64,000 nt of DNA from an uncultured Gemmatimonadaceae bacterium (GCA_963716745.1 OY970320.1:2240001-2304000); one strand, 5' to 3'. Counted from the stretch's first letter, positions 161 through 21,004 are shown. Notes: a model not told the origin generated them from the letters alone. Translations and numbers: made by a program.

Positions 161-394
161 TCGTGGCCGATCCGAGATCACGGTTCATGTTTAACGGGAT
201 GCGGCGGAAACAGCACGGATTGATTCCGTGCGTGATGGCAGATCGCCGCGCGCGGTCGGGCTTCTGTAGTTGTTGTTAACAACAAAAACCCGGCGCTATT
301 GAGAAGGGGTGATCCATTCCGCCGCATGGAGTCGATCCGTGCTGTTTCCGCCGTATCCCGTTAAACATGAACCGTGATCTCGGATCGGCCACGA
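161..394. repeat. Family A long palindrome, copy 1 (234 bp)
   Basis: 72-bp arms at 161-232 and 323-394 containing ATCACGGTTCATGTTTAACGGGAT; central TTGTTGTTAACAACAA at 270-285. Confidence 0.95.
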
Positions 395-479
395 TGATGC
401 TGAGGCTCCATGGGACCAAATGAAAAAGCGGCGGGCGAAGATCTCGCCCGCCGCTTTGAATTCGAATCCGGTCCAACCA

Positions 480-2468
480 CTACATCGTCGTCGTCTTCCC
501 CAGCATCTTCACGACGCCCGCGAGCATACCCACCTTCGCCGCGTCGCTCGAACCCTTCTCGTCCGCATCCAGCGACGCGGCGAGCTTGTTCAGTTCGTCC
601 GACCGCGCTGTGCCCGACGCCTTCTCGGCGCGCTCGAGCGCCTCACGCGCGTCCTTGATCTTGCCGCTCGACAAACCCTCCGACCGCTCCAGCTGGTCGA
701 GATAGGCCTGCGCGAGCACGAACGTCGCCGGCCACACCAGCTTCGGCTGGCCCTGCGTGTTCAGATAGTCGAGGTGCACTGTCTTCGCGGCCGCGATCTC
801 GTTCGCCGTGAGGTACGGGCTCGGCGTGAGTTCGAAGATGTCGAGGCCGCGCGCGATCTCGGAGCTGATCATGTAACCGTTGTACCAGTACACCGACCAG
901 CTGCCGCCCATCGCCATGCGAGCGGAGTCCACCGGTCCGCGGTCGAAGAACGCGATCTCTTTCGCGTGCGCCGCATCGGTCCAGTCGAACACCGACACGC
1001 CGCCCTGGTACCACGCCTGCACCATCACGTCGCGGCCGGGGATCGGGATCAGGCCGCCGTTGTGCGCCACGCAATTCTCCTGCGGCGTCTGCGCCGCCGG
1101 CATCTTGTAGTAGCCCTGGAACACGAGCTTGTTGTCGACGATCGTGAAGAGCGCGTCGGCGCCCCAGTCCTTCGGGTCCGTGGCACGGCACTTCGGCTGG
1201 CCGCCGCCGCCCCACTCATCGGAGAAGAGCAGTTTCGTGCCGTCGTTGTTGAACGTCGCCGAGTGCCAGTACGAGAAGTTCGAATCGCTCGCCGCGGCCA
1301 AGCGCATCGGATGCGTCGGGTCCGAGATGTTGAGCAACAGCCCGTAGCCTTCGCACGCGCCGCCGGCGAGTCCGATCGCCGGATAGACCGTAATGTCATG
1401 GCACTGCGTGGGACCCGGGCGCGGACCCGAGCCCGGCGTGGTGGGCGTGATGCCGAACATCTTGTTGATGATGCCGTCGAGCGCCGGACGCAGCGCCGCG
1501 CTGTCCGCGGCCGTCGGAGCGCCCGTGCCGCCGCGCGCCTTCACGATGCTGTCGAGCAGCGGATCGATCGTGCGCGGCGACAGGATGCGGGGCATTCCCT
1601 GGTAGACCCAGATGAACGCGCCCTTCGCGCTCGCCGAGTCCGCGGCCTTCTTCGCCGCGGCCATGTCGGTCGCGGTCTCGCCGTGCCGGGCCGGCGCGAC
1701 GAGGTCGTTGAAGATGCGCGGCGAGTTCACGATCGCGGCCTGCTCCGGATGCGCGAGCGGCACCTTGATCACTTCGATGCGGAACAGCGCCGAGTTCGGA
1801 TCGGCTGACGGCGCGGCCTTGGAGCAGCCCGGCATCTCGTTCGGCGAACGCACGCCCGCCGAGCCCGAGATGTAGACGTACACGTTCTCGGGATCCTTGG
1901 GATCGTAGAGCACCGTGTGCGTGTGCGAGCCGCGGCACGTTTGCACGTTGCCGACGTTCACTGGGTGCTGGATGTCGCTGATGTTGAAGATGCGCAGTCC
2001 GCGCAGGCGCTCCGTGCTCACTGTGTCCTTCACGCCCTGGGCGCCGCAATCGAGCCGGCCGCTCAGGCCTTCACCCGACACGAACAGCAGGTTCTTGAAC
2101 ACCGACACGTCGCTCTGCGACGCGGGGCAGTAGAACGCGATCTTGAGCGCCGGCTTGCTCGCGTCGGACACGTCCCACACCTGGTAGCCGGCGTAGCTCC
2201 CCTGGATCACATAGGGGCCGGTGAAGGCGAGATCGGAATTCGTCTGGCCCACGAACTTCTCCGAGGGCGGTGTGTTGGACACGAGCTTCATGTTCCACGA
2301 CGCTTCGCCGGCGTTGTTGAGGCCGGCCTTGAGTCCGACGCGCGGGTCGGGGCTCGGCGCGACGACGTTCAGCCCCTTCGACGACGGATGCGTGCACGCG
2401 GCCACGGACAGCAGGCCGGCGGCGAGCGCGAGGGGGAATGAGCGGCGGATCTGATGCAGCAATGCCAT
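480..2468 (-). CDS. Secreted or lipoprotein LVIVD-repeat (beta-propeller) protein
   Basis: 662 aa; signal peptide with lipobox-like VAAC; NSDLAF, GYQVWDVSD, SHTHT, QCHDITV, WHSATF motifs; adjacent to DUF305 gene. Confidence 0.8.
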   Translation of the reverse strand: MALLHQIRRSFPLALAAGLLSVAACTHPSSKGLNVVAPSPDPRVGLKAGLNNAGEASWNMKLVSNTPPSEKFVGQTNSDLAFTGPYVIQGSYAGYQVWDVSDASKPALKIAFYCPASQSDVSVFKNLLFVSGEGLSGRLDCGAQGVKDTVSTERLRGLRIFNISDIQHPVNVGNVQTCRGSHTHTVLYDPKDPENVYVYISGSAGVRSPNEMPGCSKAAPSADPNSALFRIEVIKVPLAHPEQAAIVNSPRIFNDLVAPARHGETATDMAAAKKAADSASAKGAFIWVYQGMPRILSPRTIDPLLDSIVKARGGTGAPTAADSAALRPALDGIINKMFGITPTTPGSGPRPGPTQCHDITVYPAIGLAGGACEGYGLLLNISDPTHPMRLAAASDSNFSYWHSATFNNDGTKLLFSDEWGGGGQPKCRATDPKDWGADALFTIVDNKLVFQGYYKMPAAQTPQENCVAHNGGLIPIPGRDVMVQAWYQGGVSVFDWTDAAHAKEIAFFDRGPVDSARMAMGGSWSVYWYNGYMISSEIARGLDIFELTPSPYLTANEIAAAKTVHLDYLNTQGQPKLVWPATFVLAQAYLDQLERSEGLSSGKIKDAREALERAEKASGTARSDELNKLAASLDADEKGSSDAAKVGMLAGVVKMLGKTTTM

Positions 2469-2493
2469 TGTCGGTTCCTCGAGAGAAGCCTGC

Positions 2494-3180
2494 TCAGGGT
2501 GAGCTGGACGCGGGGGGGAGAGCGGCGAGCATCTTGTTCATGCGCGCGATCTCCGTGGTCTGATCGACCTGCACATCGTTCGCGAACTTGAACACCAGCT
2601 CGTCTTCGCCGGCGCCGGTGGTGCCGAAGAGCTGGTTGACCATCTGCACGGCGCCGGTGTGGTGCTGGATCATGAAGGTCAGGAAGAGACGGTCGAACTC
2701 GGTGCCGCGCGCGGCGTCGAGCGCCTTCATTTGCTCGGGGGTGAGCATGCCGGGCATGAGCATCATCTGCTCCTTGCCGCCCATCTCCATCTTCATGCCG
2801 TTCGCGTCGGCGGCCGGCACGGGGAGCTGGCGGTCCACCAGCCACTGCTGCATGGTGACGATCTCATCGTTCTGCGCATTGATGATGCGCGCCGCGAGCG
2901 TCTGGATCGACGAACTGGCGCCGTGCGTCGGCGCCCACTTGGCCATGACGATGGCCTGCGCGTGATGGCCGATCATCCCCTGCATGAAATAGACATCGGC
3001 CTCGACATACGGATGCCGCACACTGTCGGCCTTGGCCTTCGCGATGTGGGCCGCGTCGGGCGTCACGACGCCAGGCTGCGTGTTGCCGGGCGCGACACCC
3101 TGCGCCGCCACCTCCATGGAACAGACCGCGAGCGCCGCGAGCGCGGCGCGAATGGTGACCGAATTGAAGCTTCGCATCAT
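2494..3180 (-). CDS. DUF305 domain protein (ferritin-like, secreted)
   Basis: Duplicated FMQGMIGHHAQAIVMA and FLTFMIQHHTGAVQMV helices; MPGMLT. Confidence 0.9.
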   Translation of the reverse strand: MMRSFNSVTIRAALAALAVCSMEVAAQGVAPGNTQPGVVTPDAAHIAKAKADSVRHPYVEADVYFMQGMIGHHAQAIVMAKWAPTHGASSSIQTLAARIINAQNDEIVTMQQWLVDRQLPVPAADANGMKMEMGGKEQMMLMPGMLTPEQMKALDAARGTEFDRLFLTFMIQHHTGAVQMVNQLFGTTGAGEDELVFKFANDVQVDQTTEIARMNKMLAALPPASSSP

Positions 3181-3362
3181 CGGGATTCTCCGGCTGGGGC
3201 GCGGGAAGCGCGCCCCCCACTATTAAGACAACCCTTCGAGCCTTAGAGATTGCCACACCGTTCCCGCCCACGCAACCCGCATGGGCGCGACGGGATGAAT
3301 ACGCTCGGCGGGGCTGGTTCGTTGGGGGCGGCGGCCTGGGCGCCCGTCAGGCTCCGCGCCCC

Positions 3363-3582
3363 AGGCTGATATCACGGTTCATGTTCAAGGGGATGCGGCG
3401 GAAAGAAGCACGGATCGACTCCATGAGGCGGAATGGATCGGTTCTCTTCGTCGGCGCTGTGTTGTTGTTGTTAACAACAACAACCGAAACCTGACACAGC
3501 GCGGCGACCTTTCATCATGCACGGAGTCGATCCGTGCTGTCTTCCGCCGCATCCCCTTAAACATGAACCGTGATCTCAGCCT
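3363..3582. repeat. Family A long palindrome, copy 2 (220 bp), inverted relative to copy 1
   Basis: Arms 3363-3425 and 3520-3582; centre (GTT)4(AAC)4 at 3461-3484; inner spacers resemble the reverse complement of copy 1. Confidence 0.95.
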
Positions 3583-3698
3583 TGTCGCGCGGAGGCCGGC
3601 GGGCGCTCGGAGCTCAGAGAATCATCGTCGCCACGATCTGAGTGGCGGACCGGGCACATTATCCGTATCCATTCAGCGGCACTCCACGGAGGCACGAC

Positions 3699-4148
3699 AT
3701 GCGGGCGTACATCATGGCGGTGGCGGCACTCGGCATCGCGTCGCTCAATCCGCAGAAGGATCCGCCGATCTCTCTGCATCAGGATGTGCAGTTCACGGTG
3801 GGCACGAAGCAGGTGTACGACGTGCTCCTCAGCAGCAAGGATTTCGCCGCCTTCTCAGGCCGCAATGCGACGATCGATCCGCACGTCGGCGGCGCGTTCC
3901 TGTTGTTCGACGGGCACATCTCGGGCGTCAACGTCGAACTCGTGCCCAACGAGCGGATCGTCCAGGCGTGGCGCTCGGCCGATTGGCCGGCCGGCGTCTA
4001 CTCGATCGCGCGCTTCCAGTTGAACGCGCAGGGCGCTGGCACACAGCTCGTGTTCGACCACATCGGGTTCCCGGCGGGACAGAAGGACCACCTCGCCGCC
4101 GGCTGGGAAGCGAATTATTGGTCGCTCATGAAGAAGTACCTCAAATAG
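3699..4148 (+). CDS. SRPBCC/AHSA1 (START-like) domain protein
   Basis: GGAGG RBS before ATG 3699; IDPHVGGAF, ELVPNERIVQAWR, GWEANYW. Confidence 0.85.
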   Translation: MRAYIMAVAALGIASLNPQKDPPISLHQDVQFTVGTKQVYDVLLSSKDFAAFSGRNATIDPHVGGAFLLFDGHISGVNVELVPNERIVQAWRSADWPAGVYSIARFQLNAQGAGTQLVFDHIGFPAGQKDHLAAGWEANYWSLMKKYLK

Positions 4149-4161
4149 GAGACTCGATCTC

Positions 4162-4959
4162 GTGATGCTTCGCATCCCCGTGCGAGTCGTGGCCACGTGC
4201 GCCGCGCTCGCGATCGCCGCTGCCGCGGCGCGCGCCCAGACCGCGCCGGCCTCCGGCCTCGCCCTCTTCGACCAGATGTACCAGGCCTATAAGGGGAAGT
4301 GGTACACGACACTCACCTTCGTGCAGAAGACCACGAACAAGCGCGCCGACGGCACCGACTCCGTCGCCACGTGGTACGAGAGCATTCGCTATTCGCAGCC
4401 GCGCGGCTCCCAGTTGCGCATCGACTTCGGATCGCCCACACTCGGCAACGGCGTGCTCTATACCGCCGATTCGCTCTGGGTGATGAAGGCTGGGCAGCTC
4501 TCGCTCACGCGCGGACACGGCAACGCCCTGCTGCCGCTCATCGATGGAGTGTATATGCAGCCCGCGTCGCGCACCGCCGCCGAGCTGGCGGGCACCGGCG
4601 TGGACCTGTCGCGCAAACCCGTGCTGGGCCGGTGGGACGGGAAGCCCACGTGGATCATCGGCGTCACCTCGCTCGCCGACACGACGTCGCCCAGCTTCTG
4701 GGTGGACTCCGCCACGCTGAACGTGGTGCGAGCGGTGTTCACGATCGCACCGGGCCGGATGATCGACGCGCGGTTCGAGAACCTGGTGCGCGTGGGCGGC
4801 GGCTGGCTCGCGGTGCGCTGCGAGTTCTTCGAGCACGGCTCGCTCGCCACCACCGAGGAATATTCCGACTGGAAGGGGAACGTGGACCTTCCAGCCTCGT
4901 TGTTCGATCTCGCGCAGTGGACAACCGGTCCGCACTGGGCGGCGGCGCGCGCACCCTGA
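4162..4959 (+). CDS. Secreted hypothetical protein, possibly LolA-like fold
   Basis: 265 aa ORF with Ala-rich signal peptide; KWYTTLTFVQKT, LRIDFG. Confidence 0.7.
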   Translation: MMLRIPVRVVATCAALAIAAAAARAQTAPASGLALFDQMYQAYKGKWYTTLTFVQKTTNKRADGTDSVATWYESIRYSQPRGSQLRIDFGSPTLGNGVLYTADSLWVMKAGQLSLTRGHGNALLPLIDGVYMQPASRTAAELAGTGVDLSRKPVLGRWDGKPTWIIGVTSLADTTSPSFWVDSATLNVVRAVFTIAPGRMIDARFENLVRVGGGWLAVRCEFFEHGSLATTEEYSDWKGNVDLPASLFDLAQWTTGPHWAAARAP

Positions 4960-4993
4960 TCGGCCCAGCTATGTCCTGAACGAAGGCTCTTCC

Positions 4994-6275
4994 ATGCCAC
5001 ACCCATCGCTGAATCCGCCGGGCCTGAACGCGATCCACCGTGCCGCATGCGCGACCCTGCGCGTCGAGCTCGCGCATGTGTTGAAACAGATCCAACAGAC
5101 GACCGACGTGCGGACTCTGCAGAACCTTCTGAAGCAGGCCGCCGTGCTCGAGATCGCGATCCAGAATTGCCCCGAACCATCTCCTCCAAAGACGTCGCCT
5201 CCGGATCTCAGCGATTGGCTCGCCCACAATCCGAAGGTCACGGGCTCGATCCTCTGGCAGAAGCAGGCGGCGAGTCCCGGGAATGCCTACGTTCCGCCGG
5301 CGGCGGGCGATAAGGTCGCGTGGGTGGACTGGACTCCGACGCAGAAAGCGCAACTCGAAGCAGGTCTACCTCGACTGCTGCATCTGGCTGGACGCGGGGG
5401 CGCCCTCCGTTCTGCTCGATCCCGCCGGCTTGACCGATGCGCCTCAGAACGTGGATCCCGGGACCTCAAACGATCTTGGGAGCGTGATCGAGAAAGTGAG
5501 CGCGACGTATATGTGGGAGATCTATCTCGCGCACGTCGGCTTCGCGTTGGCGGCCGAGCTCACGAACCTCTTCCCGTGGAAGATCGCTGCGTACAACGCG
5601 CTCGAGTTGCGCTACGTGTTCGACAGTACGACAATGGCGTGGCTCATGCCCTCCGGCGAATTCTGGATGGGCACATACGACGTGTATGTTCCGGCACTCC
5701 GGGCCGACAATCGTCCGCAAACGGCCTTCGCGCCCCCCGAATGGAGTTATCGCTTTCTCAAGCAGAACAACCTCATCGGGGCATCGAAGATCGAGACGAT
5801 CGGCCTCGTGTTGGAATGGGCGCGCCAGCATTTGGTCCATTTCTACGGGGCTGAGAATTTCGGAACGTGCGACAATGTGTGGCACTATCGCGGCTTCCCT
5901 CCCATCTCGCGCGTGACCGGTGGCACGATCGACTCCGCGAATCCTGGCCTGGGGCCGGCATGCTACACGATGGGATGCCACGGCACGGTCGGATTCCTGA
6001 ACGCGATCCTTCGGGCGGTGAACATCCCGGTGCAGCCGATCTGGGTCGCCGGCCACGAGCTGGCGTGCTTTCTCACTGAAGGGAAGTATCTCGATCATGG
6101 GGACGATCCGTACAACAGCATCGTGAGAGCGTCCTCGCAGCCGATCCTGCAAGTACTCATCGATGAAGCCACTTACCAGGCGCGATTCACGACCGACCTG
6201 ACGGCGAACATCGTTGACCTGAACAGCCCGGCGCTCGCGTATGTGGGTTACAGCGCCGTCAATTTTCCGCCGTGA
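4994..6275 (+). CDS. Hypothetical protein with transglutaminase-like Cys-His-Asp motif; frameshift near 5358
   Basis: ORF 4994 (to ...QKAQLE) continues in the ORF 5283 frame (QVYLDC...); GCHGTVGFLNAILRAVNIPV...GH...YLDHGD. Confidence 0.6.
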
Positions 6276-6296
6276 ACGCGACCCAGAGCGTGTGAC

Positions 6297-6731
6297 ATGA
6301 TCATCACCTTTCACGGCGCCGTGCCGATCCTTCGCGTCCGCGATCTCGCCGCGAGTGTCGATCACTACGCCAAAGTGCTCGGCTTCTCCGTGGACTGGCA
6401 CGACCGCGGGATCATGGCCGGCGTGAGCCGCGGGAAATGCCACATCATGATCTGCGAGGGCGACCAGGGACACGCCGGCGGATGGGTGTGGATCGGCGTG
6501 AGCGACGCCAGCGCGCTCGAGAACGAGTTGCTGGCGCGCGGCGCGAAGATCCGGCACCCCGCCACGAACTATCCGTGGGCCTTCGAGATGCAGGTGGAGG
6601 ATATCGACGGCAACGTGCTGCGCTTCGGCTCCGACGAGAAGCCCGACGAACCCGCCGGCGAGTGGCTCGATGCGACCGGAGCGCGCTGGGAGATGAGGCC
6701 CGACGGAGGATGGAAGCGCGTGGAGGGCTGA
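6297..6731 (+). CDS. VOC/glyoxalase/bleomycin-resistance family protein
   Basis: PILRVRDLAASVDHYAKVLGF; YPWAFEMQVEDIDGNVLRF. Confidence 0.9.
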   Translation: MIITFHGAVPILRVRDLAASVDHYAKVLGFSVDWHDRGIMAGVSRGKCHIMICEGDQGHAGGWVWIGVSDASALENELLARGAKIRHPATNYPWAFEMQVEDIDGNVLRFGSDEKPDEPAGEWLDATGARWEMRPDGGWKRVEG

Positions 6732-6732
6732 C

Positions 6733-7629
6733 GTGATCGCCGTCCTCTCCGAATCGGATGTCCGCGCCGCGCTTCGCTGGGACGAACTCATTCCCGCGAT
6801 GCGGCGCGCCCTCGCCGATTTCTCCGCCGGAAGAGTCGTGCAGCCCACGCGCAGCTGGCTCACGCTCGAGGCCGGCCAGCGCCACCTCGGCGCGATGCCC
6901 GCCGCCTCCGAGCGCGCCGCGGGCGTCAAACTCGTGAGTCTCTACGCCAAGAACGCCGGCACCGCGATCCCTACGGTGATGGCCACGGTGCTGCTCGTGG
7001 ATCCGCAGACCGGCGCGCCGCTCGCAGTGGTAGATGGCACCTTCCTCACCGCGATGCGCACGGCCGCCGTGTCGGCCGCGGTGGCCGACGCGATCGCGCC
7101 GCGCGACGCAGCGATCCTCGCGATGCTCGGCAGCGGGGTAGAAGCGGGTACGCACTTCGAAGCGATGTCGAGCATCCGGAAGTTCCGCGAGGTGCGCGTA
7201 TGGAGCCGCACGCCCGGGCACGCCGCGCGATTCGCGGCGCGCTACGGTGCGACAGCGCTGAGCGCCGAACAGGCCGTACGCGGCGCAGACATCATCGTGT
7301 GCGCGACTGCCACACGCACGGCCATACTCGAGGGCGCGTGGCTCAAGCCCGGCGCGTTCGTCGCGTCGATCGGGGCACCAATGCCCGAATGGCGCGAAGT
7401 GGACGACGACGCGATGTCCAACGTGATCGTGGTCGATTCACGCGAAGCGTCGCTCGCCGAAGCCGGCGACATCATCCAGACGCGCGCGCCGATCCACGCC
7501 GAGGTAGGCGAGATCTTCGAGGGCACCGCCACGATCCCGCCGGGCGCCATCGTGATCTTCAAGTCCAACGGGCTGGCCGTCGAAGATGTTATCGCGGCAC
7601 AGATGGTGGTTGACCGAACAGCGCGCTAG
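6733..7629 (+). CDS. Ornithine cyclodeaminase/mu-crystallin family protein
   Basis: LTAMRTAAVSA, GSGVEA, ADIIVCAT, FKSNGLAVEDV. Confidence 0.92.
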   Translation: MIAVLSESDVRAALRWDELIPAMRRALADFSAGRVVQPTRSWLTLEAGQRHLGAMPAASERAAGVKLVSLYAKNAGTAIPTVMATVLLVDPQTGAPLAVVDGTFLTAMRTAAVSAAVADAIAPRDAAILAMLGSGVEAGTHFEAMSSIRKFREVRVWSRTPGHAARFAARYGATALSAEQAVRGADIIVCATATRTAILEGAWLKPGAFVASIGAPMPEWREVDDDAMSNVIVVDSREASLAEAGDIIQTRAPIHAEVGEIFEGTATIPPGAIVIFKSNGLAVEDVIAAQMVVDRTAR

Positions 7630-8234
7630 GTCCCAGTCGACATTGCCGACGAGTACCCCGCCAGTCTCGACACGATGACGCCGACCACCACGAAGAGAAC
7701 GACCGCGGCAATGATGACGGTGATCGTGTAGCCCATCGCCTTGTCTTCCGGCACCTTCATCAGGACCGGCAGCCCGAGATAGATGAGGTACAGACTGTAG
7801 AGTCCGAGCAGCGCGAGGATCCCGAGCGCGGGAATGATGCCGAAGATCCCCGCGAGCCAGCCAGCGGTGCTCGCGTACGCGCACACCTTGAGCGCCTGCA
7901 CCATGTTCTTCGTGCCGCCGAACGTCGGCGCGAGCGCGTCCACGATCATCGCGAGCACGTACACGGTGCAGAGGCCGAGCACGTAGCGGATGACGGCGCC
8001 GGTGAGCGCCGTCATGAAGGGAATGTGGATCGTGCCGACGAACGGCATGGGGACACCGAAGAGCGACATCCCGATCAGCCCGGCGATCGGCCCGATCGCC
8101 GAGAGCGGGACGATGTAGCCCATGTAGAGCGACTGGACCGTGGCGCTCTCGCCGTCGATCACCGGCCATTCGGAGCGCGGCTGGAGGATGATGTTCTTCG
8201 CGCGCGCCATCAGCGCTCCCTGGGCTGCGTTCAT
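7626..8234 (-). CDS. Yip1 family membrane protein
   Basis: RAKNIILQPRSEWPVI, LAPTFGG, YSLYLIYLGLPVLMK; about 5 TM segments. Confidence 0.9.
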   Translation of the reverse strand: MNAAQGALMARAKNIILQPRSEWPVIDGESATVQSLYMGYIVPLSAIGPIAGLIGMSLFGVPMPFVGTIHIPFMTALTGAVIRYVLGLCTVYVLAMIVDALAPTFGGTKNMVQALKVCAYASTAGWLAGIFGIIPALGILALLGLYSLYLIYLGLPVLMKVPEDKAMGYTITVIIAAVVLFVVVGVIVSRLAGYSSAMSTGT

Positions 8235-8256
8235 CGTGTGCTCCTGGGGTTGGAGG

Positions 8257-9117
8257 TCACTTCGGCGGCGGCGGCCGCGTGGGCGCGCCGCGATCCACCT
8301 TGGTATAACCGGCCGGCACTTCGAACACGCTGGCGGGGATCGGCCCCTTCTTCACGTTCGAGATGAGCGTCGTCGTGGTGCTCGTGTGTGTCTTGCCACT
8401 CTGCGTGCTCACCGAAGTACTGACGCGTTTCATCATCACGCCGGGCTTCACGTTCGCATACGCCTTGATGATCGCGCTCGTGAGCGGCGCCATCGGGCCG
8501 GTCGCTTCCGCGATCTTTCCCACATCGGGCCGCGCCGACGGATTCATCAGTGCGTTCAGCGCGGGCGCGATCCAGATGTCGGAGGTGGTGTGCGTGGGCG
8601 TCTTCGTCTCATTGCCCATCATCGTGAGGTCCATGGTGTAGCTCTCGGTGAGGCGATACTTGAGGGTCGAGTAGCCCTCGATCTTCTCGCCGGCGCCGAG
8701 CGGCTCCATGCTCACATGCACGTCGGTGACTTTCATCGACACCATGCTCGGCGCGGCCTTCATCGCATTGCTCGCGTCCCGGGAGAGTTCAGCGAGGTCG
8801 AGCTGCATGTACTGTCGCTTCGAGGGGTCCACGAAAGTCACCGTGCGAGCGGCGCTATTCGAGATCATGAAGTTGCCGGCGCCCATCATGCTGGCCCGGT
8901 TCATCGATTCGGAGAAGTCGAGGCGCGACACGCCGCTGGCGAATTGCCCGTGCGCCCGCAGGAAGGTGACCGTGGTGTCCTTGCCGGTCGCGCGATCCGC
9001 GCGCGTGACGGTCGTGGTGAGGTCGTAGCTATAGCCCTGCGCCGCGAGCGGTAAGGCGAGCACGATCGCGAGCGCGATCGCGGCGCGGCGAGCGGGCGCG
9101 GAGCGTGAATTTCGCAT
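8257..9117 (-). CDS. Secreted DUF4412-like protein
   Basis: Probable start MRNSRS at 9117; signal peptide; GEKIEGYSTLKY; C-terminal IPASVFEVPAGY. Confidence 0.75.
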   Translation of the reverse strand: MRNSRSAPARRAAIALAIVLALPLAAQGYSYDLTTTVTRADRATGKDTTVTFLRAHGQFASGVSRLDFSESMNRASMMGAGNFMISNSAARTVTFVDPSKRQYMQLDLAELSRDASNAMKAAPSMVSMKVTDVHVSMEPLGAGEKIEGYSTLKYRLTESYTMDLTMMGNETKTPTHTTSDIWIAPALNALMNPSARPDVGKIAEATGPMAPLTSAIIKAYANVKPGVMMKRVSTSVSTQSGKTHTSTTTTLISNVKKGPIPASVFEVPAGYTKVDRGAPTRPPPPK

Positions 9118-9161
9118 CGAGGTAACGTAGCGCCGGTCGCCGGCGGCCGCCATCTTACAGC

Positions 9162-12282: not shown

Positions 12283-14730
12283 TAGATCGCGTCCTCGTCC
12301 TCGCCGAAGGGATCGCCCGGCGGCGCGCGCAGCGCCGGCGTGAATGACGGGAGGGTGCCCTCCTCCTGATAGTGCGCGATGTCGCTCGCGATGAGCGACC
12401 AGAAAGCGCGGTCCTCCACGCTGCCCGTGGCGGACCGCGTTTTCGCCATGGTCTTCCACGCGCCCAGCTTGTACGCCGCGATCGCGCGCACCTGACCGAG
12501 CGCGGTGGAATCGGCCGCGAGCAGCATCACGCGGTCCACCAGCGCTCGGCGCGAGACCTTGAGCAGCGCCTCGCTCTTGGGGTCGGTGCCACTCTTCGTG
12601 AGCGTCGCCGCGGCGAGCGCGTCGATGGTCTCGCTCAGCGTGAGCGGATTGGTCTGGTGCGGCGCGAACTCCACCAAGCGCGCCGCGCGGTCCTTCTGCA
12701 GCACGTTGTCGATGATCATCTGCGCGAGCGTGCGCGCGGCGCCGAACTCGTCGAACGCCGGCCGCGTGCGGCTCGCGAAGCTCTCCACACCGCCGCCGTA
12801 GCCCGGCGGGGCTGGGGCGAGCAGCCGCAGAATGGTGTCGGGGATCGCGAGCTCACTCGGTGACAGGGCGCCCACCAGCATCTTGAGCGCCGCGCGTTGC
12901 CGCGTGGGATCGATGAGCCGCGTCGCGTTCTCGCCGTCGCCACGCACGGCGAATGAATATTCCATGCCGCCGAGCGTACGCGCGGTGGCGCTGATGCCGA
13001 AGCGATGGAAGAGATAGAGCGGCACGAACCGGTCGTGCAGCAGCGCCACCGCTTCGCCCTCGCGAATGTTGCGGAGCCCGAACTCCTTCATCGCCACGCG
13101 CCGCACATCCATCTGGCGCTGAAGGAAGAGCGTGGCCGTCGCGGCGTCGTCCCAGAGATTCGTGCGCGGGTCGGAGCTGAAATCCGGGCGCGCATCCTGG
13201 TCGGTAAGGTACAGGTATCCCTTCTTCAATCCCTCGGTCATGATCGCCTTGAGCGAGTCCGCTTCGCTCGCCGCGGGGAAAATGCCGTAGCCCCACCGGA
13301 TGGCCCACACATCGTAATCTCCCGGGCCCATCGCGTACGCCTGGCTTACATCCACGGCGCCCTTCGCGTCGAGCATGATGCGCGGCGCTGGATAATCCAT
13401 GACGGATCCGCGCTCGTACGTGCTCGCGATGTAATTGTGCGCCATCCCCAGCGTGTGCCCGATCTCGTGCGCCGTGACCTGGCGCACGCGGCCGAGCACG
13501 AAGTGCGTATCCGCCGGCGATGGATCGGCTCCCATAAGCGCAGCGTAGAGATTGTACGCGGTGCGATTCCGGTGCGAATCCATGTGCGCGACGCCCTTGA
13601 GATTCTCGCCGGTGCGCGGATCGCCGAGCGATCCGCCGAAGCTCCAGCCGCGCTCGTTGCGATTGATCCAGAGCACCATGTTGTAGCGCACATCCATGGG
13701 ATCGGCGCCGGCGGGAAGATCTCTCACGACGAAGCCGCCCTTGAGCCCCGCACGGTCGAACGCCTCGCTCCAGAACTTCGCGCCCGTGACCGACGCCGAG
13801 TGCATCGGCTCCGGGATCGCGGGGTCGATGTAGTAGACGATCGGATTCTTGATCGGGCTGTTCGGATCGTTCGGGTTCGTGCGCTCGAGGCGGAAGCGCG
13901 AGATCCAGTGCACGTCGAGCCGGCCCTGCACGGGCTGGCCGAAGTCCTTGAAATCCACGCCGAAGAATCCGATGCGCGGGTCGGCGACGCGAGGGCGGTA
14001 CTCATCGTTCGGCAGACGCACGAGGCTGTAGTGCACGCGCAGCGTGAACGCGCGCCCGTCGGCCGCGACCTGGCTCACGGTGTTACCCGGCGTGCCGTTC
14101 GCGACGAACGTCTGCGCGATGTCGATCTCGGTGTTGTCGGGAAATGCCTTCGTGAACGGTGTGTACACGCTCGAGCGGTCCTTCGACAGCGAGTAATTCC
14201 CCTCGTGCTCGCTCTGCAGCCGCTCGCCAACCGAGAGCCAGTCGCGCACGAACAGATCAGTTGCATCCACGAGGATCCGCCCGTTCTCGCTCGCGAGTAC
14301 CGGCATGCTCGCCATGGTGCTCGGCGGGAACGATTCCATCACCGACTCGCCATTGGGCGAATTCGCGCCGAGCGAGCTGCGGTATTTCCAATTCTCGACG
14401 ACGAGCAGCAGGCGATCGCCGGTGCGCTGCACGTGCACGACGCGGTCGTCGTCTGCCGCGCCGCGATCGAAGCCAAGCGGATTGGAGCCAAGCCCAGTGG
14501 CTTCCTGTGCGAAGAGGAGGAAACGCATCGAGTCGCGCGGCAGCTCGAGCAGGATCTTCCCGTTCTTCTCGTCGAGGTAGAGGGGAATGAAGCCGTCGCG
14601 CTTCTCCATGCCGCTGGTCTTGGACGCGATCGTGGCAGGGCCGGACGAAGCGGGCTGTTGTTGTGTGGCGGCAGGAAGCCGCGAGGGAGAGAGCGGCGAG
14701 AACGGAGAGCGCGCGCGAGAATTTCAGCAT
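12279..14730 (-). CDS. Zinc-dependent metalloprotease (DUF5117/DUF4953 type); frameshift in the signal region near 14690
   Basis: HEIGHTLGMAH metzincin motif, SVMDY Met-turn; signal peptide MLKFSRAL in another frame. Confidence 0.9.
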
Positions 14731-14782
14731 GGCTCGGGTGTGTCGAGGGGAGGTCATTATGGCGCGCGGGGAGCGCAAGTTC

Positions 14783-14870
14783 AACTACAGACTGAGACGT
14801 TAGACTTAGACTTAGAATGCGCGAGCAGTGAGTAGTCTAACGTCTTAGTCTAACGTCTCAGTCTGCAGGT
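14783..14870. repeat. Family B palindrome (AGACTT/AGACGTT units), copy 1
   Basis: AACTACAGACTGAGACGTTAGACTTAGAC...GTCTTAGTCTAACGTCTCAGTCTGCAGGT. Confidence 0.9.
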
Positions 14871-14880
14871 ACGACTCAGA

Positions 14881-15264
14881 ATGCCGCCTCCGCCGACGAT
14901 CTCGAAGGTTCTCTCAAGGGCTCTCCGCCGTAGATGTCCCAACTGCGGCGCCCAGCCCATCTTCGTCGACTGGTTCCACATGACGCCCGGCTGCATGCAC
15001 TGCGGGCTCGCGCTCGAGCGCGGCGAGGAGGGATACCAGGTGGGCGCGTACATGATCAACATCGGCGCGTCGCTCTTGCTGTTCGTGCTCGGGTTCCTCG
15101 GCGCGTTGCTGGCCACGTGGCCCTCGCCACCATGGGCAGTCATCACGTATGTTGGCGCGGCGCTGATGGTCGCCTTCCCGATATTCTTTTATCCCTATTC
15201 CAAGACGCTCTTCCTGGGCTTCGACATCTTGATCCATCCACCATTCGAACCGGGTGACACGTGA
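14881..15264 (+). CDS. DUF983 domain membrane protein
   Basis: RRCPNCG...CMHCG zinc-ribbon motif followed by two TM segments. Confidence 0.85.
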
Positions 15265-16850
15265 GCCCGCGGCGCACGCGCAGCATCGTCGTGGGCGGAG
15301 CGCCGCGCTGGCGCACGGGACCCATCCTGTCGCCGGCGGCGATCGAATTCGTCACCGAGCTGGTGCGCACGCACCGCCCAACGCTGGCCAAGCTCCTCAC
15401 GCGCCGCGCCGAGCGAGCGAGAGAGATGGATGCGCGCGCGGCCGCCGGGCAGCCGATCCTCGATTTCCTCGAGAGCACGCGCACGGTGCGCGAGAGTGAA
15501 TGGACATGTGCGCCGATCCCCGCCGACCTGCGCGACCGCCGCGTGGAGATCACGGGTCCCGTGGATCGCAAGATGGTGATCAACGCGCTCAACTCCGGCG
15601 CGCGCGTGTTCATGGCGGACTTCGAGGATTCCACGACGCCCACGTGGGCGAATCTCATCGCCGGCCAGCAGAACCTGTACGACGCCGTGCGCCGCACGAT
15701 CACGTTCGAAGCTGGCGGCAAGCAGTACGCGCTCAGTGCGAAGACCGCCGTGCTCATGGTGCGCCCGCGCGGACTGCATTTACCGGAAGCGCACTTCATG
15801 GTGGACGGCGAGCCTGCGCCGGGCGCGCTCTTCGATTTTGGATTGTACTTCTTCCATAATGCCAAGGCGCTCCTCGAACGCGCTACGGCGCCGTACTTCT
15901 ATCTCCCCAAGCTCGAGAGCCATCTCGAAGCGCGGCTCTGGAACGACGTATTCATCCAGGCGCAGCGCGCACTCGGCGTGCCACTCGGAACGATCCGCGC
16001 GACGGTGCTCATCGAGACGCTGCCCGCCGCGTTCGAGATGGACGAGATCCTGCACGAGCTGCGCCAGCACGCCGCCGGCCTGAACTGCGGTCGCTGGGAT
16101 TACATCTTCTCGTTCATCAAGAAGCATCGCGCGAGCAGCGCCGCGATCCTACCCGACCGCGCGCAGATCACGATGGACAAGGGATTCTTGCGCGCGTACT
16201 CGCAGCTCCTCATCCGCACCTGCCACCACCGTGGCGTGCACGCGATGGGCGGCATGGCGGCGCAGATCCCGATCAAGAACGATCCCGCGCGCAACGAGGC
16301 GGCGCTCGACCGCGTGCGTGCGGACAAGAAACGCGAAGCCGGCGACGGCCACGACGGCACATGGGTCGCACACCCGGGGCTCGTGCCTGTAGCGATGGAG
16401 ATCTTCGACGCCGCGATGCCCGGCCCGAACCAGATCGGGAAACTGCGTGAGGACGTGAAGTCGTCCGTCTCCGATCTCCTCAGTGTGCCCGCGGGCACGC
16501 GCACCGAGGCGGGCCTTCGGCACGATGTGCGCGTCGGCATCCAGTACATCGAGGCCTGGCTGCGCGGCGTCGGCTGCGTGCCGCTCTACGATCTCATGGA
16601 AGACGCCGCGACCGCCGAGATCAGCCGCGCGCTGGTGTGGCAGTGGCTGAAGCACGGGGTCACGGTGGGAGACGCCCCACTCACCGCCACGCGCTTCAAT
16701 GCGATCGTCGAAGAGGAGACGCGCGACTTCGCCGGCGGGAAATTCGCCGAGGCGCGGGAGATGTTCGTGTCGCTGTCCTTGGCGCCAGAGTTCGCAGATT
16801 TCTTGACGATCCCGGCATACGAGCGGATCGTGTCGGAAGAGCAGACTTAG
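15261..16850 (+). CDS. aceB: Malate synthase A
   Basis: [61 protein letters not shown]. Confidence 0.97.
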
Positions 16851-16925
16851 ACGTTAGACTGAGACGTTAGACTACGCACTACCCACGCCTTCTAACGTCT
16901 AAGTCTAGAGTCTAAGTCTGCAGTT
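16841..16925. repeat. Family B palindrome, copy 2, inverted relative to copy 1; overlaps the aceB stop codon
   Basis: GCAGACTTAGACGTTAGACTGAGACGTTAGACTAC...TCTAACGTCTAAGTCT...AAGTCTGCAGTT; loop resembles the reverse complement of the copy 1 loop. Confidence 0.9.
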
Positions 16926-16955
16926 ACGACGCTGGGCCAGTCGAGGTTGCCTGCA

Positions 16956-17879
16956 TCACGGCGCCTCAATGAACGTCCCATCCCTAAGGTCGCTCAAGGC
17001 TTTCCTCAGTTCCTGTTCCGTATTCATCACGATCGGCCCATACCAAGCCACGGGCTCTTCGATCGGCTTGCCGCTCACGAGCAGAAAGCGGATGCCGCGC
17101 TCGCCGGCCTGCACGGTGATCTCGTCGCCGCTGCCGAAGAGCACGAGGTTGCGGTCCTGTGCGAAATCCTCATCCGCGCGCTTCGCCTCGCCGGGCGTCA
17201 CGAGCGTGCCGACCTGCTCGGTCTCGATCGCGCGCGGCGCCGAAGCGTCGCGGAACTTTCCGTCGCCCTCGAACACATATGCGAACGCGTGCGCGCCACG
17301 CTCTACCTTGAGCGATTTCTTCTTGCCGGGCGGCACCCAAACGTCGAGGTAGCGCGGTTCAGCGGCGACGCCCTCCACCGGTCCCTTCTTTCCCCAGAAA
17401 TCGCCGACCACCACGCGCACGTGCGTGCCGTCATCGTCGGTGACTTCGGGAATGTCCTTCGCGAAGATGTCCTGATAGCGCGGGTGCGTCATCTTGAGCG
17501 ACGACGGCAGATTCGCCCACAGCTGGAAGCCGTGCATGCGTCCTTTCGCATCGCCCTGCGGCATCTCCTGGTGCATGATGCCGCGCCCCGCGGTCATCCA
17601 TTGCACGTCGCCGGCGCCGAGGCTGCCGCGATTGCCGAGACTGTCGCCATGCTCGACGGAACCGGCGAGCACGTAGGTGATGGTCTCGATGCCGCGATGC
17701 GGGTGCCAGGGGAACCCCGCGAGATAGTCGGCGGGATTCTCATTTCGGAAATCGTCGAGCAAGAGGAACGGGTCGTACTCTTCGGTGTCACCGAATCCGA
17801 AGGCGCGGCGGAGACGAACGCCCGCGCCTTCCATCGTGGGCTTGGATTCTATGATCCGTTTGACTGGACGTATGGACAT
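16956..17879 (-). CDS. Pirin family protein
   Basis: DPFLLLDDF, GFPWHPHRGIETITY, VQWMTAGRGIMHQEMP, YGPIVMNT. Confidence 0.96.
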   Translation of the reverse strand: MSIRPVKRIIESKPTMEGAGVRLRRAFGFGDTEEYDPFLLLDDFRNENPADYLAGFPWHPHRGIETITYVLAGSVEHGDSLGNRGSLGAGDVQWMTAGRGIMHQEMPQGDAKGRMHGFQLWANLPSSLKMTHPRYQDIFAKDIPEVTDDDGTHVRVVVGDFWGKKGPVEGVAAEPRYLDVWVPPGKKKSLKVERGAHAFAYVFEGDGKFRDASAPRAIETEQVGTLVTPGEAKRADEDFAQDRNLVLFGSGDEITVQAGERGIRFLLVSGKPIEEPVAWYGPIVMNTEQELRKALSDLRDGTFIEAP

Positions 17880-17884
17880 AAAGG

Positions 17885-17919
17885 GCAGACTTAGACGTTA
17901 GATCTAGACGTTAGACTAC
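17885..17919. repeat. Family B half element (one arm) just upstream of the pirin gene
   Basis: GCAGACTTAGACGTTAGATCTAGACGTTAGACTAC. Confidence 0.85.
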
Positions 17920-17971
17920 AACGGCCCGCCATGGGGCTTATCTGCAAGATAGAAATCGTGTCAATGGGCCC

Positions 17972-18802
17972 TCACTTCAGGCTAGCGAGTTTGTCCTTCA
18001 TCCGCTGGCTTTGAGGGAACCTCGCCACGAGTGCGGTGAGAATCACCCTCGCCGAATCCTTTTGGCCCATCGCGATGAATGCATCCGCTTTCGTCGACTG
18101 GTAGCGGCCCCACATGCGGGAGCTGTCGGCGGGCGTGGGGAGCTTCGCGAGCACGGCCATCGCGGCGGCGCCATCCTTTTTGTCCATAATGAGCGACTGC
18201 GCGTACGCGAGCTGGATCTGCTGGTCGTTGGGGAAACGGCGCGCGAGTTCCTCGAATTCCTGCGCGGCCGCGGCCGTGTTCTTTTGATCGCGGTCGAGCA
18301 GCGCCCGGTTGTACAGCGCGGCGACAATGGTGTGATTCACGTCGGTGGTGTCCTGGGTGCGCTCGCCCACGCCGCCGGCGTACGAGTAGACCACAACGCC
18401 GCCCAGCCGCCCGACATCATAGACCTCGTAGGCGCCCCACAAACAGAGCAGTGCCGACGCCATGATGATCCACCGCTTCCACTTCGCGAGCGCCGGCACG
18501 AGCGCGAGGAGCTCGATCGCCGCGATCACGAGGAAAAGGTTCCGAAGATCCTTGCCCGCATCCTCATGCGCTTGTACCGCCGCCGCCGCGCCCGGAATGC
18601 GCTCGGAGAGTTGATGCGTGTCCGTGCCGGACTGGACGGCGAACACCGCCGCCACAGTGCCGATGAGGAGCACCGTGGTCGCCGCCCGGTCGGTCCACGG
18701 CAGCTTGCCGGTCACGGACACCACCCGGAACAGGATGCCGAGCGAGAGGCCGGCGATCACGAAATGAACGATCTGCGGATGGTAATAACCGATGTCGGGC
18801 AT
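17972..18802 (-). CDS. DUF2231-type membrane protein with C-terminal TPR region
   Basis: HPQIVHFVIA N-terminus, four TM segments, helical TPR-like tail. Confidence 0.8.
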   Translation of the reverse strand: MPDIGYYHPQIVHFVIAGLSLGILFRVVSVTGKLPWTDRAATTVLLIGTVAAVFAVQSGTDTHQLSERIPGAAAAVQAHEDAGKDLRNLFLVIAAIELLALVPALAKWKRWIIMASALLCLWGAYEVYDVGRLGGVVVYSYAGGVGERTQDTTDVNHTIVAALYNRALLDRDQKNTAAAAQEFEELARRFPNDQQIQLAYAQSLIMDKKDGAAAMAVLAKLPTPADSSRMWGRYQSTKADAFIAMGQKDSARVILTALVARFPQSQRMKDKLASLK

Positions 18803-18872
18803 CAGACGGGATTCGGGTGAGGGTGATGAAGAAGCTTATCGAATCACACGTGCCGCGTTAAGTAGCTACGGC

Positions 18873-18960
18873 AACTGCTTCATGACAGGATTGACATGAT
18901 GATCATGATTGAACGGCGTGGTTCAATCATGTTCATCATGTTAATCCTGTCAAAGCAGTT
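18873..18960. repeat. Family C palindrome (AACTGC...GACAGGATT...AATCCTGTC...GCAGTT), copy 1
   Basis: 88-bp imperfect hairpin abutting the stop codon at 18961. Confidence 0.9.
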
Positions 18961-19902
18961 CTACTTGATAGGCTCCGCGGTGAGCGCCAGTGGCACACGT
19001 CTCAGGCCGTGCCACGCATATACGGCGCCATCCGCTCCAACAATGCGCAGCTGCGCCGATACCCCGCCGTCGAGCGCGACCGCTCTACGGCAGCCGAGCG
19101 CGCCCATGAGCGCGGCGGTCTCCGGGATCGTGAGGCCGAAGGGGATGCCTCCAAGCGATGTGCCCAGCGCATCGAATCGCGTGAGCGCCACGACGATCGT
19201 GCCGTCGGCCAGCTGGCCGATCGCCAGGCGCGCATCGCGATGTTCGAGATCGATGAGCCCGGTGGTCTCGCGCAATAGTCGCGGCACTTCGCCGCCACTC
19301 TCGAGGAGCGTGGGATACGACTGGAATGCTTCGCGCACGCCCGCGGGGTGATCGGCGGTGCCGCGCAGCCGGCGCATCGCGACGCTCGCATCGTTCTCGA
19401 ACGTGACGTTCCCCGCGGAGTCAATGATCACCGCGCTCGCGAGCGGGCCCGCACCGGGCGCACGGTACTCGACGCCGTCGTGGACGACCCATCCCCATAC
19501 CGCGCCGCCCGCGAATTGGCCGGCGTTGAACGCGACGACAGCCTCCGGTGGCGCCGCATCGATCGTCCACGTTCCCACGCCGCCATCCGGCGCGGCGCCA
19601 TTCGCCAATCCCAGCGCCACGCGACGCGGATCGATGTGCGCGACCACCACGCGCGTGCGCCACGCTTCGCCGCTGCCGGCGAGTTCCAGTTCCGCCCACC
19701 GCACGCCCGATGCCCCTTCCTTCCACTCGAGCGCTGCGCTCACGGCCGGATCGGCCGCCGTCCACCGCGCCGGCGCATCCTGCGCGCGCCACCACGTGAC
19801 CCACACTCCTTTCGTGTCGCGCACGCCCAGCGCCGCGCCGCTCGGCGGCGCGCCGAGCGACGGCAGCAGCGCCGCCAGGATCAGGAAGCGCCGGCCGATC
19901 AT
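18961..19902 (-). CDS. Phosphodiester glycosidase (NAGPA) family protein
   Basis: AFNAGQF, QSYPTL, ARLAIG, AVALDGGVSAQL. Confidence 0.85.
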   Translation of the reverse strand: MIGRRFLILAALLPSLGAPPSGAALGVRDTKGVWVTWWRAQDAPARWTAADPAVSAALEWKEGASGVRWAELELAGSGEAWRTRVVVAHIDPRRVALGLANGAAPDGGVGTWTIDAAPPEAVVAFNAGQFAGGAVWGWVVHDGVEYRAPGAGPLASAVIIDSAGNVTFENDASVAMRRLRGTADHPAGVREAFQSYPTLLESGGEVPRLLRETTGLIDLEHRDARLAIGQLADGTIVVALTRFDALGTSLGGIPFGLTIPETAALMGALGCRRAVALDGGVSAQLRIVGADGAVYAWHGLRRVPLALTAEPIK

Positions 19903-19909
19903 GCGGTGC

Positions 19910-20870
19910 CTACTTCGCCGCCGCCTTGCACTTCGCCATCGCCGCGTTCTGCAGCTGCGACATTGTCTGCGCGTATTGCATCAGCTTCGCCGTGTCGCCC
20001 GCCTTCTGCGCGGCTTCCATGTCGGCCTTGTGTGCCGCGGCATAGTCCTGCGCCGCCTTCGATTCCTTCTGGAAGCAGGCGGCGAACGTCATCGAGCCGA
20101 CGCCCGACGCCGCGGCGGCGCCCGCCGGCATCGCCGCCGCCGGGGGCGGCGCGTTCTGGGCCGCGATCATGGCATCGGTCTTGTATCGCACACCGAGCAG
20201 TTGCGCGAGTTCAATGCGGTGTGCCTTCACCGCGGCGATCTCCGCCGCCGAGAATCCATTCGGATGTCCCCACGCCGAGATCTGCTGGCTGGTGGCGTTC
20301 GGGTTCGTCGCGAGCGCGTTCACGAGCATCGGCATCACATCCACGACGGCGGTCCAGCCGCAATAGTCGAAATCGCCGGCATGCTCGGCGGCCACATCCA
20401 GTCGATCGTTGCCCGCCTTCTGAGTTTCCCACGGGAGGTGCGGCAGCGTCACCGATTGAGGATCCGGTTTCACGCCCTGCATCTGCCGCGCCGCCGAGGT
20501 GTCGCCCGATTGCACGCGTTTCTGCAGCGCCAGATACTTGTCCCAGTCGGGGCCCGTCTGGTTGTCGAAGTCGTACTCGCGCCGTTGGAGGCTCCGCTGC
20601 TGCATCAGCGCGGCGTAGTACTGTCCCGTGGGCGAATTCTCTTTCGCGATCACGCCCATCATCGAGTCGCGCGCCTGGAGCGCCTTCATGTAGCGTGCGA
20701 CGAGATCGTCGGTGACCGTCGGCGCGCCCGCGTCGCACTTGGGCGGCTTCGCGCTCGGCGTGCTGGCCGTCGGCGTGCTCGGCAACTTCGGCGTCGGCAA
20801 TCCGAATTGAGCGTTCGCGGACATGACGAACAGGAAAAGCGATGGCGACGATCGAGAGCGAGCGGGTCAT
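19910..20870 (-). CDS. Secreted hypothetical protein; frameshift near 20836
   Basis: MTRSLSIVAIAF joins ..MSANAQ across an A4 homopolymer; helical body with four Cys. Confidence 0.7.
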
Positions 20871-20918
20871 CGGTCGGCTCCTGATTGGATGGCGTGTTTC
20901 GAGCTAACGAACTGATAC

Positions 20919-21004
20919 AACTGCTTTGACAGGATTAACATGATGAATGTGATTGAACTGCGCCGTTCAATCATTCTCATCATGTAAATCCTGTCAAAGC
21001 AGTT
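20919..21004. repeat. Family C palindrome, copy 2, inverted relative to copy 1
   Basis: AACTGCTTTGACAGGATTAACATGATG...CATCATGTAAATCCTGTCAAAGCAGTT, close to the reverse complement of 18873-18960. Confidence 0.9.

Follow-up and report, generated by a model that had tools for sequence, protein, structure and literature searches.

Palindromic repeats between the genes of a Gemmatimonadaceae chromosome: probable gene-less foldback elements with local same-family spread

Palindromic repeats of three families, here called A, B and C, lie between the genes of a 64,000-nt stretch of DNA (the window) from an uncultured Gemmatimonadaceae bacterium, at 2,240,001-2,304,000 of one 3,292,296-bp contig, 66.9% G+C (GCA_963716745.1, OY970320.1). 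The copies in the window, numbered A1-A3, B1-B3 and C1-C2, are probably non-autonomous, gene-less foldback (hairpin) repeats with local same-family spread, similar to REP doublets forming hairpins (REPINs, built on repetitive extragenic palindromic or REP sequences) and to miniature inverted-repeat transposable elements (MITEs). This reading draws on family sizes, gene-arm association, clustering, unbiased orientation, synteny and insertion-deletion differences, all of which were observed directly. Family C is the gene-less form of a GxxExxY element at 1,094,733-1,095,220 of the same genome, and the complete form of family B, which carries a four-helix-bundle gene, is still present in two congeners. 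Family A, judged by its sequence, appears to be an orphan of related architecture.

A sequence-only reading of the window had described six palindromes as three unrelated families, each forming an inverted pair around a two-gene module, and had proposed that such brackets might delimit invertible or mobilisable units. All six copies are present where that reading placed them, and each is an imperfect palindrome. Overall, its interpretation is partly supported: the local same-family process is real, whereas the inverted rule and the inversion of modules are not supported.

A complete element consists of one small gene, encoding either a four-helix-bundle protein or a GxxExxY nuclease, in the loop between inverted arms of tandem units. 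The arm sequence differs from one gene copy to the next, in the way that every REP-associated tyrosine transposase (RAYT) gene is paired with a REPIN family of its own. According to the mechanism that we propose, the four-helix-bundle and GxxExxY proteins would mobilise their own families, and new copies would arise, or neighbours be homogenised, preferentially within a few kb of a same-family copy, so that successive gaps one or two genes apart would often hold the same family. Recombination between same-family neighbours might then add or remove units of a gene plus one element.

Hairpin families and the genes they carry

The genome under study (G000; single contig, marker-gene completeness 89.8%) was compared with five congeners, among them G002-G005. 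For a de novo repeat survey, a crude gene caller based on GC3 yielded 2342 genes (76% coding), and the uncalled DNA (24% of G000) was self-blasted and its matches clustered into repeat families. This produced 493 repeat regions in 28 clusters, 11 of which have at least 10 members. Ten clusters are hairpin families of one style, with inverted arms of tandem 7-11-nt units and a variable loop (A = f10, B = f1, C = f4, and f0, f2, f3, f5, f6, f8 and f9), and their merged total is 420 elements. When the window copies are used as blastn queries, family A has 14 loci in G000, B has 66 and C has 46; as overall estimates, these families have about 13, 62 and 46 loci. The roughly 420 elements occupy about a fifth of the intergenic gaps (360 in total: 114 of 261 between convergent genes, 55 of 281 between divergent genes and 191 of 1159 between genes in tandem), an intergenic location that is partly a matter of construction because the search covered only DNA left uncalled.

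In nine of the ten families, including B and C, the consensus ends in AAC(N)GC...GC(N)GTT, and AACNGC is found at 192 of 606 palindrome ends versus 2.8% of random intergenic 20-mers. In eight of nine families, the left arm of a copy pairs better with the right arm of that same copy than with those of the remaining copies, which means that the arms co-vary within a copy. The three families of the window are unrelated in sequence, as had been claimed, but B and C have one common architecture. At the genus level, B occurs in three of the five congeners and in none of 25 genomes of other genera; C likewise occurs in three of five, and strong matches to A among the congeners are confined to G002 and G004. 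An exact-pattern scan of genome contigs for family A returned nine loci, all gene-less and all in records of Gemmatimonadaceae metagenome-assembled genomes.

What ties most of these families together is the gene carried by their complete forms. Seven matches to PF05635 (TIGR02436, four-helix-bundle) exist in G000, six open genes and one remnant, and all seven lie between inverted arms, each of a different family (f0, f2, f3, f5, f6, f8 and f9); next to the f8 gene, a labelled arm is present on one side only. The inverted-flank scores of these loci range from 55 to 119, and a score of 49 is attained by only 3 of 200 small genes picked at random. Clear inverted arms, each with its own unit sequence, also surround 24 of 30 PF05635 loci in the five congeners. 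B arms flank a PF05635 gene in G004 (L016) and G002 (L017), while no PF05635 gene of G000 has B arms around it.

Family C is associated with a different gene. In G005, C arms with an insert of ~400 nt contain a gene for a GxxExxY PD-(D/E)xK nuclease (TIGR04256/PF13366) at two loci, and the single intact PF13366 gene of G000 (1094823-1095158) likewise sits between C arms, with an inverted-flank score of 43 compared to a control 95th percentile of 32. Four C copies are found within 3 kb of this gene. Judged by eye from a density table, such closeness of a family to its cognate gene is clear only for C and partly for f6. Taken over the genus, a gene-bearing form was found for nine of the ten families, and B and C both combine tandem-unit inverted arms, a gene-bearing relative and the shared ends.

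Two further loci in G000 carry damaged genes: a truncated PF05635 remnant is still enclosed by f2 arms (2,641,426-2,641,521), and a frameshifted GxxExxY gene at 2,952,907-2,953,217 is without labelled arms. Cognate genes decay while repeat families persist.

Hairpins in such numbers might instead serve the host as structural or regulatory DNA or RNA, be it as terminators, mRNA stabilisers or arrays of binding sites for small proteins, with same-family neighbours marking co-regulated or co-folded domains. The co-varying arms, the preference for convergent gaps, the resemblance of the tandem 7-11-nt units to binding-site arrays and a run of f6 elements that stays in place across species all fit this idea. 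Yet, copies occur alike upstream of genes, downstream of them and in convergent gaps, many are reduced to half-copies or solo arms, and the same gap between the same genes can hold a different family, or none, in a congener. In addition, no T-run follows the stem at B1, B2, C1 or C2, and no family of Rfam 15, those of attC sites included, was matched at gathering score in the window or in locus L047. We therefore regard a host-serving role as improbable.

Same-family neighbours and turnover among congeners

The sequence-only reading had asked whether neighbouring repeats share family identity more often than expected by chance, and genome-wide they clearly do. Among neighbours 150-3000 nt apart, 90 of 219 share a family, compared to an expectation of 18.9 +/- 4.2 from 2000 label shuffles, none of which exceeded 33. 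Runs of at least three same-family elements number 17 (2.5 expected), the longest consisting of 12 f3 elements at 905,953-926,888. Moreover, for 33 of 116 elements, as opposed to 6.5 expected, the best genomic match is a neighbour no more than 6 kb away. Since neighbours share both family and closest kinship beyond chance, a local process, either re-insertion nearby or local homogenisation, is real. Segmental duplication was considered as a cause of the runs and rejected, with similar flanks in only 3 of 85 same-family neighbour pairs. In these 85 pairs, the gap has a median of 1981 nt; one called gene is enclosed in 41 of them and two in 30. The spacing of 2-3 kb noted for the window pairs is therefore correct as a measurement, but it is merely the distance between successive intergenic gaps.

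Orientation tells a different story from adjacency. The 76 neighbour pairs of informative length comprise 19 inverted, 30 direct and 27 ambiguous ones (binomial p 0.15). Because relative orientation is arbitrary genome-wide, the inverted brackets of the window are a chance sample, and the inverted arrangement of its three pairs is due to chance: same-family adjacency, not inversion, exceeds expectation. The probability of three inverted pairs had been put at 1 in 8, and C is barely orientable. Within the window, scores for inverted versus direct alignment are 244 versus 165 for A (clear), 108 versus 74 for B (moderate) and 133 versus 117 for C1/C2 (90% versus 87% identity; weak), so that the claimed resemblance of each second copy to the reverse complement of the first is clear for A, moderate for B and only weak for C. 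Nor are the pairs unique, given a third B half-copy, a third A copy and many further loci in the genome.

Programmed invertible modules, in which an invertase would recombine inverted repeats, are accordingly the explanation to which we give the least credence, close to none. The three mutually inverted window pairs brought it to mind, and same-family palindromes do share homology in both orientations. However, it is opposed by the missing orientation bias, by a single module orientation in G000, G002 and G005, and by the gene content: no tyrosine recombinase is encoded in the window and only ~4 such loci exist in the genome, serine invertases not having been searched. The earlier statement that the window is free of recombinases holds for tyrosine recombinases and Y1 transposases, neither of which was matched there, nor were PF05635 and PF13366; other recombinase and transposase families were not searched.

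Synteny with the congeners separates the genes from the repeats. Contig G002:C18 is collinear with window positions 13687-23000 at 91% identity, repeats included, and G005:C9 has the same order and orientation over 12001-22721 at 79-89%, which speaks against inversion of the modules. For positions 1-6000, collinearity extends to the two strains binned together in G002 and, in part, to G005. In the G005 gaps, the B1 site holds an A-like element, the B2 site an extra 2.2 kb, the B3 site a B-like arm remnant and the C1 site an f9 element, while nothing is present at the C2 site (48 nt versus 168). With other families or nothing at the same gaps, the bracket itself is not conserved: the modules of the window are fixed and the elements turn over. 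The B remnant shared with G005 at the B3 site is consistent with B having spread into the two neighbouring gaps at a later time. In the same neighbourhood, the more distant and fragmented assembly G003 has a PF05635 gene with CAGCCAT-unit arms directly beside its pirin orthologue, i.e. in the B2 or B3 gap (G003:C112; L019 / L077:2217-3570). Gene order in G003 differs otherwise, a TPR/DUF2231 gene lying beside the S9 peptidase and Met-zincin genes and pirin lying on another contig beside the PF05635 gene. No hairpins were found at these rearrangement junctions, and the rearrangement is thus not attributable to the elements. Against window positions 12000-23000, the G004 assembly (76% complete) shows matches to the repeats only.

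G002 is probably a bin of two strains (completeness 63%, 3.6 Mb). It contains two versions of window positions 1-6000 (G002:C5, L004, and G002:C19, L005), with 95% and 89-94% identity, which differ from each other at the A2 site.

Outside of the window, gene content does change at the repeats. Between congeners, at least six differences consist of one gene plus one element and have copies of a single family at their borders. The repeat-bounded loss that the sequence-only reading had proposed to look for is thus matched by gene-scale presence or absence elsewhere in the genome, but not for the fixed modules of the window. Three of the differences fall in an f3 run (G000 905,001-925,000): an isochorismatase unit is absent in G004 and G002:C22, a DinB_2 unit in G004, and a DUF1254/DUF1214 unit in G002:C3 and G004. 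At each of these places the relatives have exactly one f3 copy, joined to the outer flanks. In G000, the DUF1254/DUF1214 gene lies between two direct, ~96% identical f3 copies, and its gain is favoured because no homologue above 54% identity exists in the five congeners. Mapping of the crossover in this case found too few differences among the four f3 elements to separate insertion from deletion. An f0 run (812,001-832,000) has at least three further such differences versus G002 and only paralogue-level matches in G004 and G005.

These differences raise the alternative of cassette-like modules, whereby a circle of one or more genes plus one element integrates and excises at same-family elements by homologous or protein-assisted recombination, so that runs would be arrays. 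The gene-plus-element differences in the f3 and f0 runs with a single element left in relatives, the likely gain of the DUF1254/DUF1214 gene, the paralogue-level matches of the f0 region and the element ends AAC...GTT, as in integron attC sites, are in line with it. Yet, deletion between two flanking copies and integration of a gene-plus-element circle give identical junctions, and no circular form was observed. Furthermore, the enclosed genes face both directions and include core metabolism, the window modules (DUF983 plus malate synthase, NAGPA plus its neighbour, and 480-3180) are ordered alike in G005 even though the elements differ, and the f6 run is kept there together with its genes. 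On balance, cassette-like exchange seems unlikely, albeit less so than a role in serving the host. Its widest form, a chromosome-wide, integron-like but integrase-free cassette system that uses the hairpins as recombination sites, possibly aided by the cognate protein, is to be viewed with the same degree of doubt. If it were true, same-family runs would be cassette arrays, and one- and two-gene modules the units of exchange within the genus.

Several observations weigh against the foldback-repeat reading that we prefer. The sole empty site, that of C2 in G005, lies in poorly alignable DNA, and the comparisons revealed neither transposition events nor target-site duplications, nor an exact empty site in any close relative. 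Neither protein family is known to mobilise DNA. The f6 run (2,305,001-2,325,000) is collinear with G005 through five elements at 81% identity, and since it has been kept in place, some runs are old and stable, which would also fit a host function. The element survey itself was limited to the DNA that the crude GC3 caller had left.

Family A adds to these difficulties. Neither the congeners nor the exact-pattern scan of genome contigs contained a gene-bearing copy, and the A copies of G000 have AACNGC at 0 of 20 ends and irregular CGGAT-type boxes as their units. However, A-type elements at the A1 site of G005 and the A2 site of G002:C19 have regular CGCGGAT-type units, AACTGC...GCAGTT ends and a central TTGTTGTTAAC motif, the latter also being common to the A copies of G000. 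Because these elements occupy the same sites and have the features of the class, A can be viewed as a divergent orphan of it, a membership that is drawn from the elements in G005 and G002:C19.

Comparison with known repeat systems

The REP sequence of a REPIN has a GTAG head, unlike the arms described here, which consist of consecutive 7-11-nt units and end in AAC(N)GC. REPINs are gene-less hairpin doublets present in tens to hundreds of intergenic copies, and there are several families per genome, each tied to a single-copy RAYT gene that is flanked by the same repeats (Bertels & Rainey 2011, PMC3116915). The present elements resemble them in compensatory arm changes, in the coexistence of several families, each with its own gene, and in the clustering of copies beside the cognate gene, exemplified here by the four C copies near the GxxExxY gene (PMC3116915). 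The clusters differ in kind: those of REPINs are described there as tandem arrays in one gap, whereas the runs reported here extend over successive gaps (PMC3116915). The cognate genes differ as well, encoding a four-helix-bundle protein or a PD-(D/E)xK nuclease rather than a Y1 transposase and lying inside the hairpin. Repeats driven by a RAYT were rejected, as the Y1/RAYT transposase family (PF01797) has 0 matches in G000 while control genomes were positive.

A second precedent is offered by 23S rRNA intervening sequences, which encode a four-helix-bundle open reading frame according to the Pfam description of PF05635. The protein family (PF05635/TIGR02436) is the same, and in both cases it is encoded in a stem-forming insertion. 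In contrast to the rRNA insertions, there are hundreds of the elements described here, most of them without a gene, and they are located between protein-coding genes. Bacterial MITEs, for example Correia/NEMIS, RUP and ERIC, are short, non-coding, intergenic and have terminal inverted repeats. Like MITEs, the elements can overlap gene ends, as illustrated by B2, which supplies a stop codon; in contrast to MITEs, no parent insertion sequence was identified for them, their cognate genes are not known transposases, and each element as a whole forms a hairpin whose arms are made of internal repeats.

The brackets of dif modules are 28-bp XerC/D sites, strictly inverted and located on plasmids, as opposed to the 90-230-nt hairpins found here on a chromosome and with no orientation rule. 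These modules are the nearest known parallel to the paired-bracket idea, being described for Acinetobacter plasmids as discrete gene modules bracketed by paired recombination sites (PMC6449649).

Integron attC sites deserve closer scrutiny, since AAC/GTT hairpins, arrays with a spacing of one or two genes and the gain or loss of a gene plus a repeat are features that the elements share with the clusters of attC sites lacking integrases (CALINs; Cury et al. 2016, PMC4889954). The palindromes are imperfect, measure 60-140 nt and end in AAC...GTT, their same-family runs have a spacing of one or two genes and show gene-plus-repeat indels, and G000 has a frameshifted integron-integrase-like gene (2,775,564-2,776,508), all of which would suit CALIN-like arrays without a nearby integrase. 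We nevertheless hold this to be very improbable, and A, B and C were rejected as attC sites. The consensuses of B and C have AAC/GTT only and not the 7-nt cores RYYYAAC/GTTRRRY, canonical cores are missing from A as well, neighbours are not co-oriented, enclosed genes face both directions, and elements occupy 360 gaps genome-wide; on top of this, complete forms, including those of B and C, carry a gene inside the hairpin. The attC-like sites of this genome belong to a separate family. They are part of a degenerate integron outside the window, at 2,775,564-2,779,810 (L058:9564-13810), where the integrase is broken into TIGR02249 pieces of 184, 80 and 62 bits by frameshifts and one TGA. Beside it are four repeats of ~87 nt (family f15), 0.3-1.4 kb apart, with the cores CCTAAC...GTTAGG.

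Seen together, about ten hairpin families co-exist in a 3.3-Mb genome, each tied to its own small gene. The cognate genes belong to two protein families that are not related to each other and whose functions are unknown, yet one end motif is common to the repeats. The arrangement is REPIN/RAYT-like but built from different parts. For two widespread hypothetical families, the four-helix-bundle protein of 23S rRNA intervening sequences and the GxxExxY nuclease, this offers a concrete, testable role. PDDEXK_3 is listed as being of unknown function (PMC3424549), and no literature linking PF05635 or GxxExxY proteins to palindromic repeats was found in full text, with most subscription journals outside coverage. 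The strong same-family clustering at one- to two-gene spacing and the gene-plus-element differences bounded by same-family copies both appear to be new for this class of elements, and together they show that gene content and the local structure of the genome are shaped by the repeats.

The copies in the window and further observations

A1 (161-394) is a 234-nt composite palindrome between two convergent gene ends, with arms at 161-232 and 323-394 (72 nt, 94% complementary). A2 (3363-3582) lies in the divergent gap between a DUF305 gene (2494-3180, minus strand) and an AHSA1-like gene (3642-4148, plus strand) and has arms of 63 nt with 90% complementarity; its interior (3407-3540) is 80% complementary to 210-343 of A1. 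The best genomic match of A1 is A2 (83%, inverted). The pairs A1/A2 and C1/C2 count among the neighbours within 6 kb that are best genomic matches, and B1/B2 do not. The third family A copy, A3 (27958-28232), occupies the divergent gap between LanC-like and S9 peptidase genes. It had escaped the sequence-only reading and is 70% identical to A1 over 220 nt. As for the genes said to be enclosed by the pairs, DUF305, DUF983, malate synthase and NAGPA were recovered as named, whereas the supposed LVIVD gene (480-2468) has no Pfam match at E<=0.001.

Next to A1, at 423-457, a G+C-rich stem stands between A and T runs (aaaaagcggcgggcg...cgcccgccgcttt); by its appearance, this stem is what terminates transcription of the two convergent genes in both directions.

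From 14.6 to 21.0 kb, all intergenic gaps are occupied except for one of 8 nt in the NAGPA operon, and the order is B, B, half-B, C, C. B1 (14783-14875), with arms of tandem GACNTNA-type units (27 nt, 93% complementary), occupies the divergent gap that separates the Met-zincin gene from the DUF983 gene. B2 (16832-16930), located between the convergent ends of the malate synthase and pirin genes, has arms of 40 nt with 85% complementarity. The first unit of B2 (16841-16850) contains the final malate synthase codons and supplies the TAG stop (16848-16850). Since the alignment to G005 stops at 16831, the 3′ end of the malate synthase gene was apparently rewritten by the insertion of B2. B3 (17868-17925), just upstream of the pirin start and likewise overlooked before, is a half-copy with a single arm, its segment 17881-17919 being 90% identical to the left arm of B2.

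C1 (18873-18963) is a hairpin of ACAGGATT/ACATGAT-type units that abuts the stop of the NAGPA gene, with arms of 32 nt and 94% complementarity. C2 (20916-21006), in a divergent gap, has arms of 45 nt and 89% complementarity. By gap type, B1, C2 and A2 are thus divergent, A1 and B2 convergent, and B3 and C1 tandem. When folded as single-stranded DNA, B1 reaches -27.9 kcal/mol (z = -6.7), B2 -30.3 (-8.0), C1 -37.1 (-11.4) and C2 -38.6 (-13.9), with 0 of 200 shuffles folding as well as any of these; the half-copy B3 has no stable fold.

A weaker fourth bracket had been proposed around the two-component genes on the basis of (GACAGCC)3. The repeats exist, but they are two solo arms of f5, a family of 38 elements: a right-arm remnant, (GACAGCC)n, at 39481-39510, found by repeat clustering, and a left-arm remnant, AACGGACTGTTGGCTGTCGGCTGT..., at 42046-42075. 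The two arms point outwards around the two-component genes, with the right-arm type first and the left-arm type second. This is the reverse of the arm order around a gene-bearing element and could reflect either chance or a rearranged element.

The public sequencing runs with words in common with the window (best word share 0.31) all come from soil or rhizosphere metagenomes, with no RNA runs among them. Contigs from four of these runs that map to window positions 1400-21300 are short, of low depth and from mixed relatives; the sides of their joints measure at most 40 letters, mostly 20-22, and bridge 0 repeats.

At the scale of the whole genome, GC skew has its minimum at 1.89 Mb and its maximum at 0.29 Mb, and element density, which peaks at 0.7-1.1 Mb and 2.1-2.4 Mb, has no clear relation to origin or terminus as placed by this skew. 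A run of ~300 A at 2,783,057-2,783,375 (L058:17057-17375) may be an assembly artefact or a masked stretch. Finally, a further repeat family, f7, is G+C-rich, ~160 nt long and present in 33 copies in G000 as well as in G002 and G004, and has no Rfam match. Copies at L047:2687-2867, 4719-5046 and 8121-8543 are interleaved with f3 elements in the 905-925 kb run, and the family has ~30 other loci.

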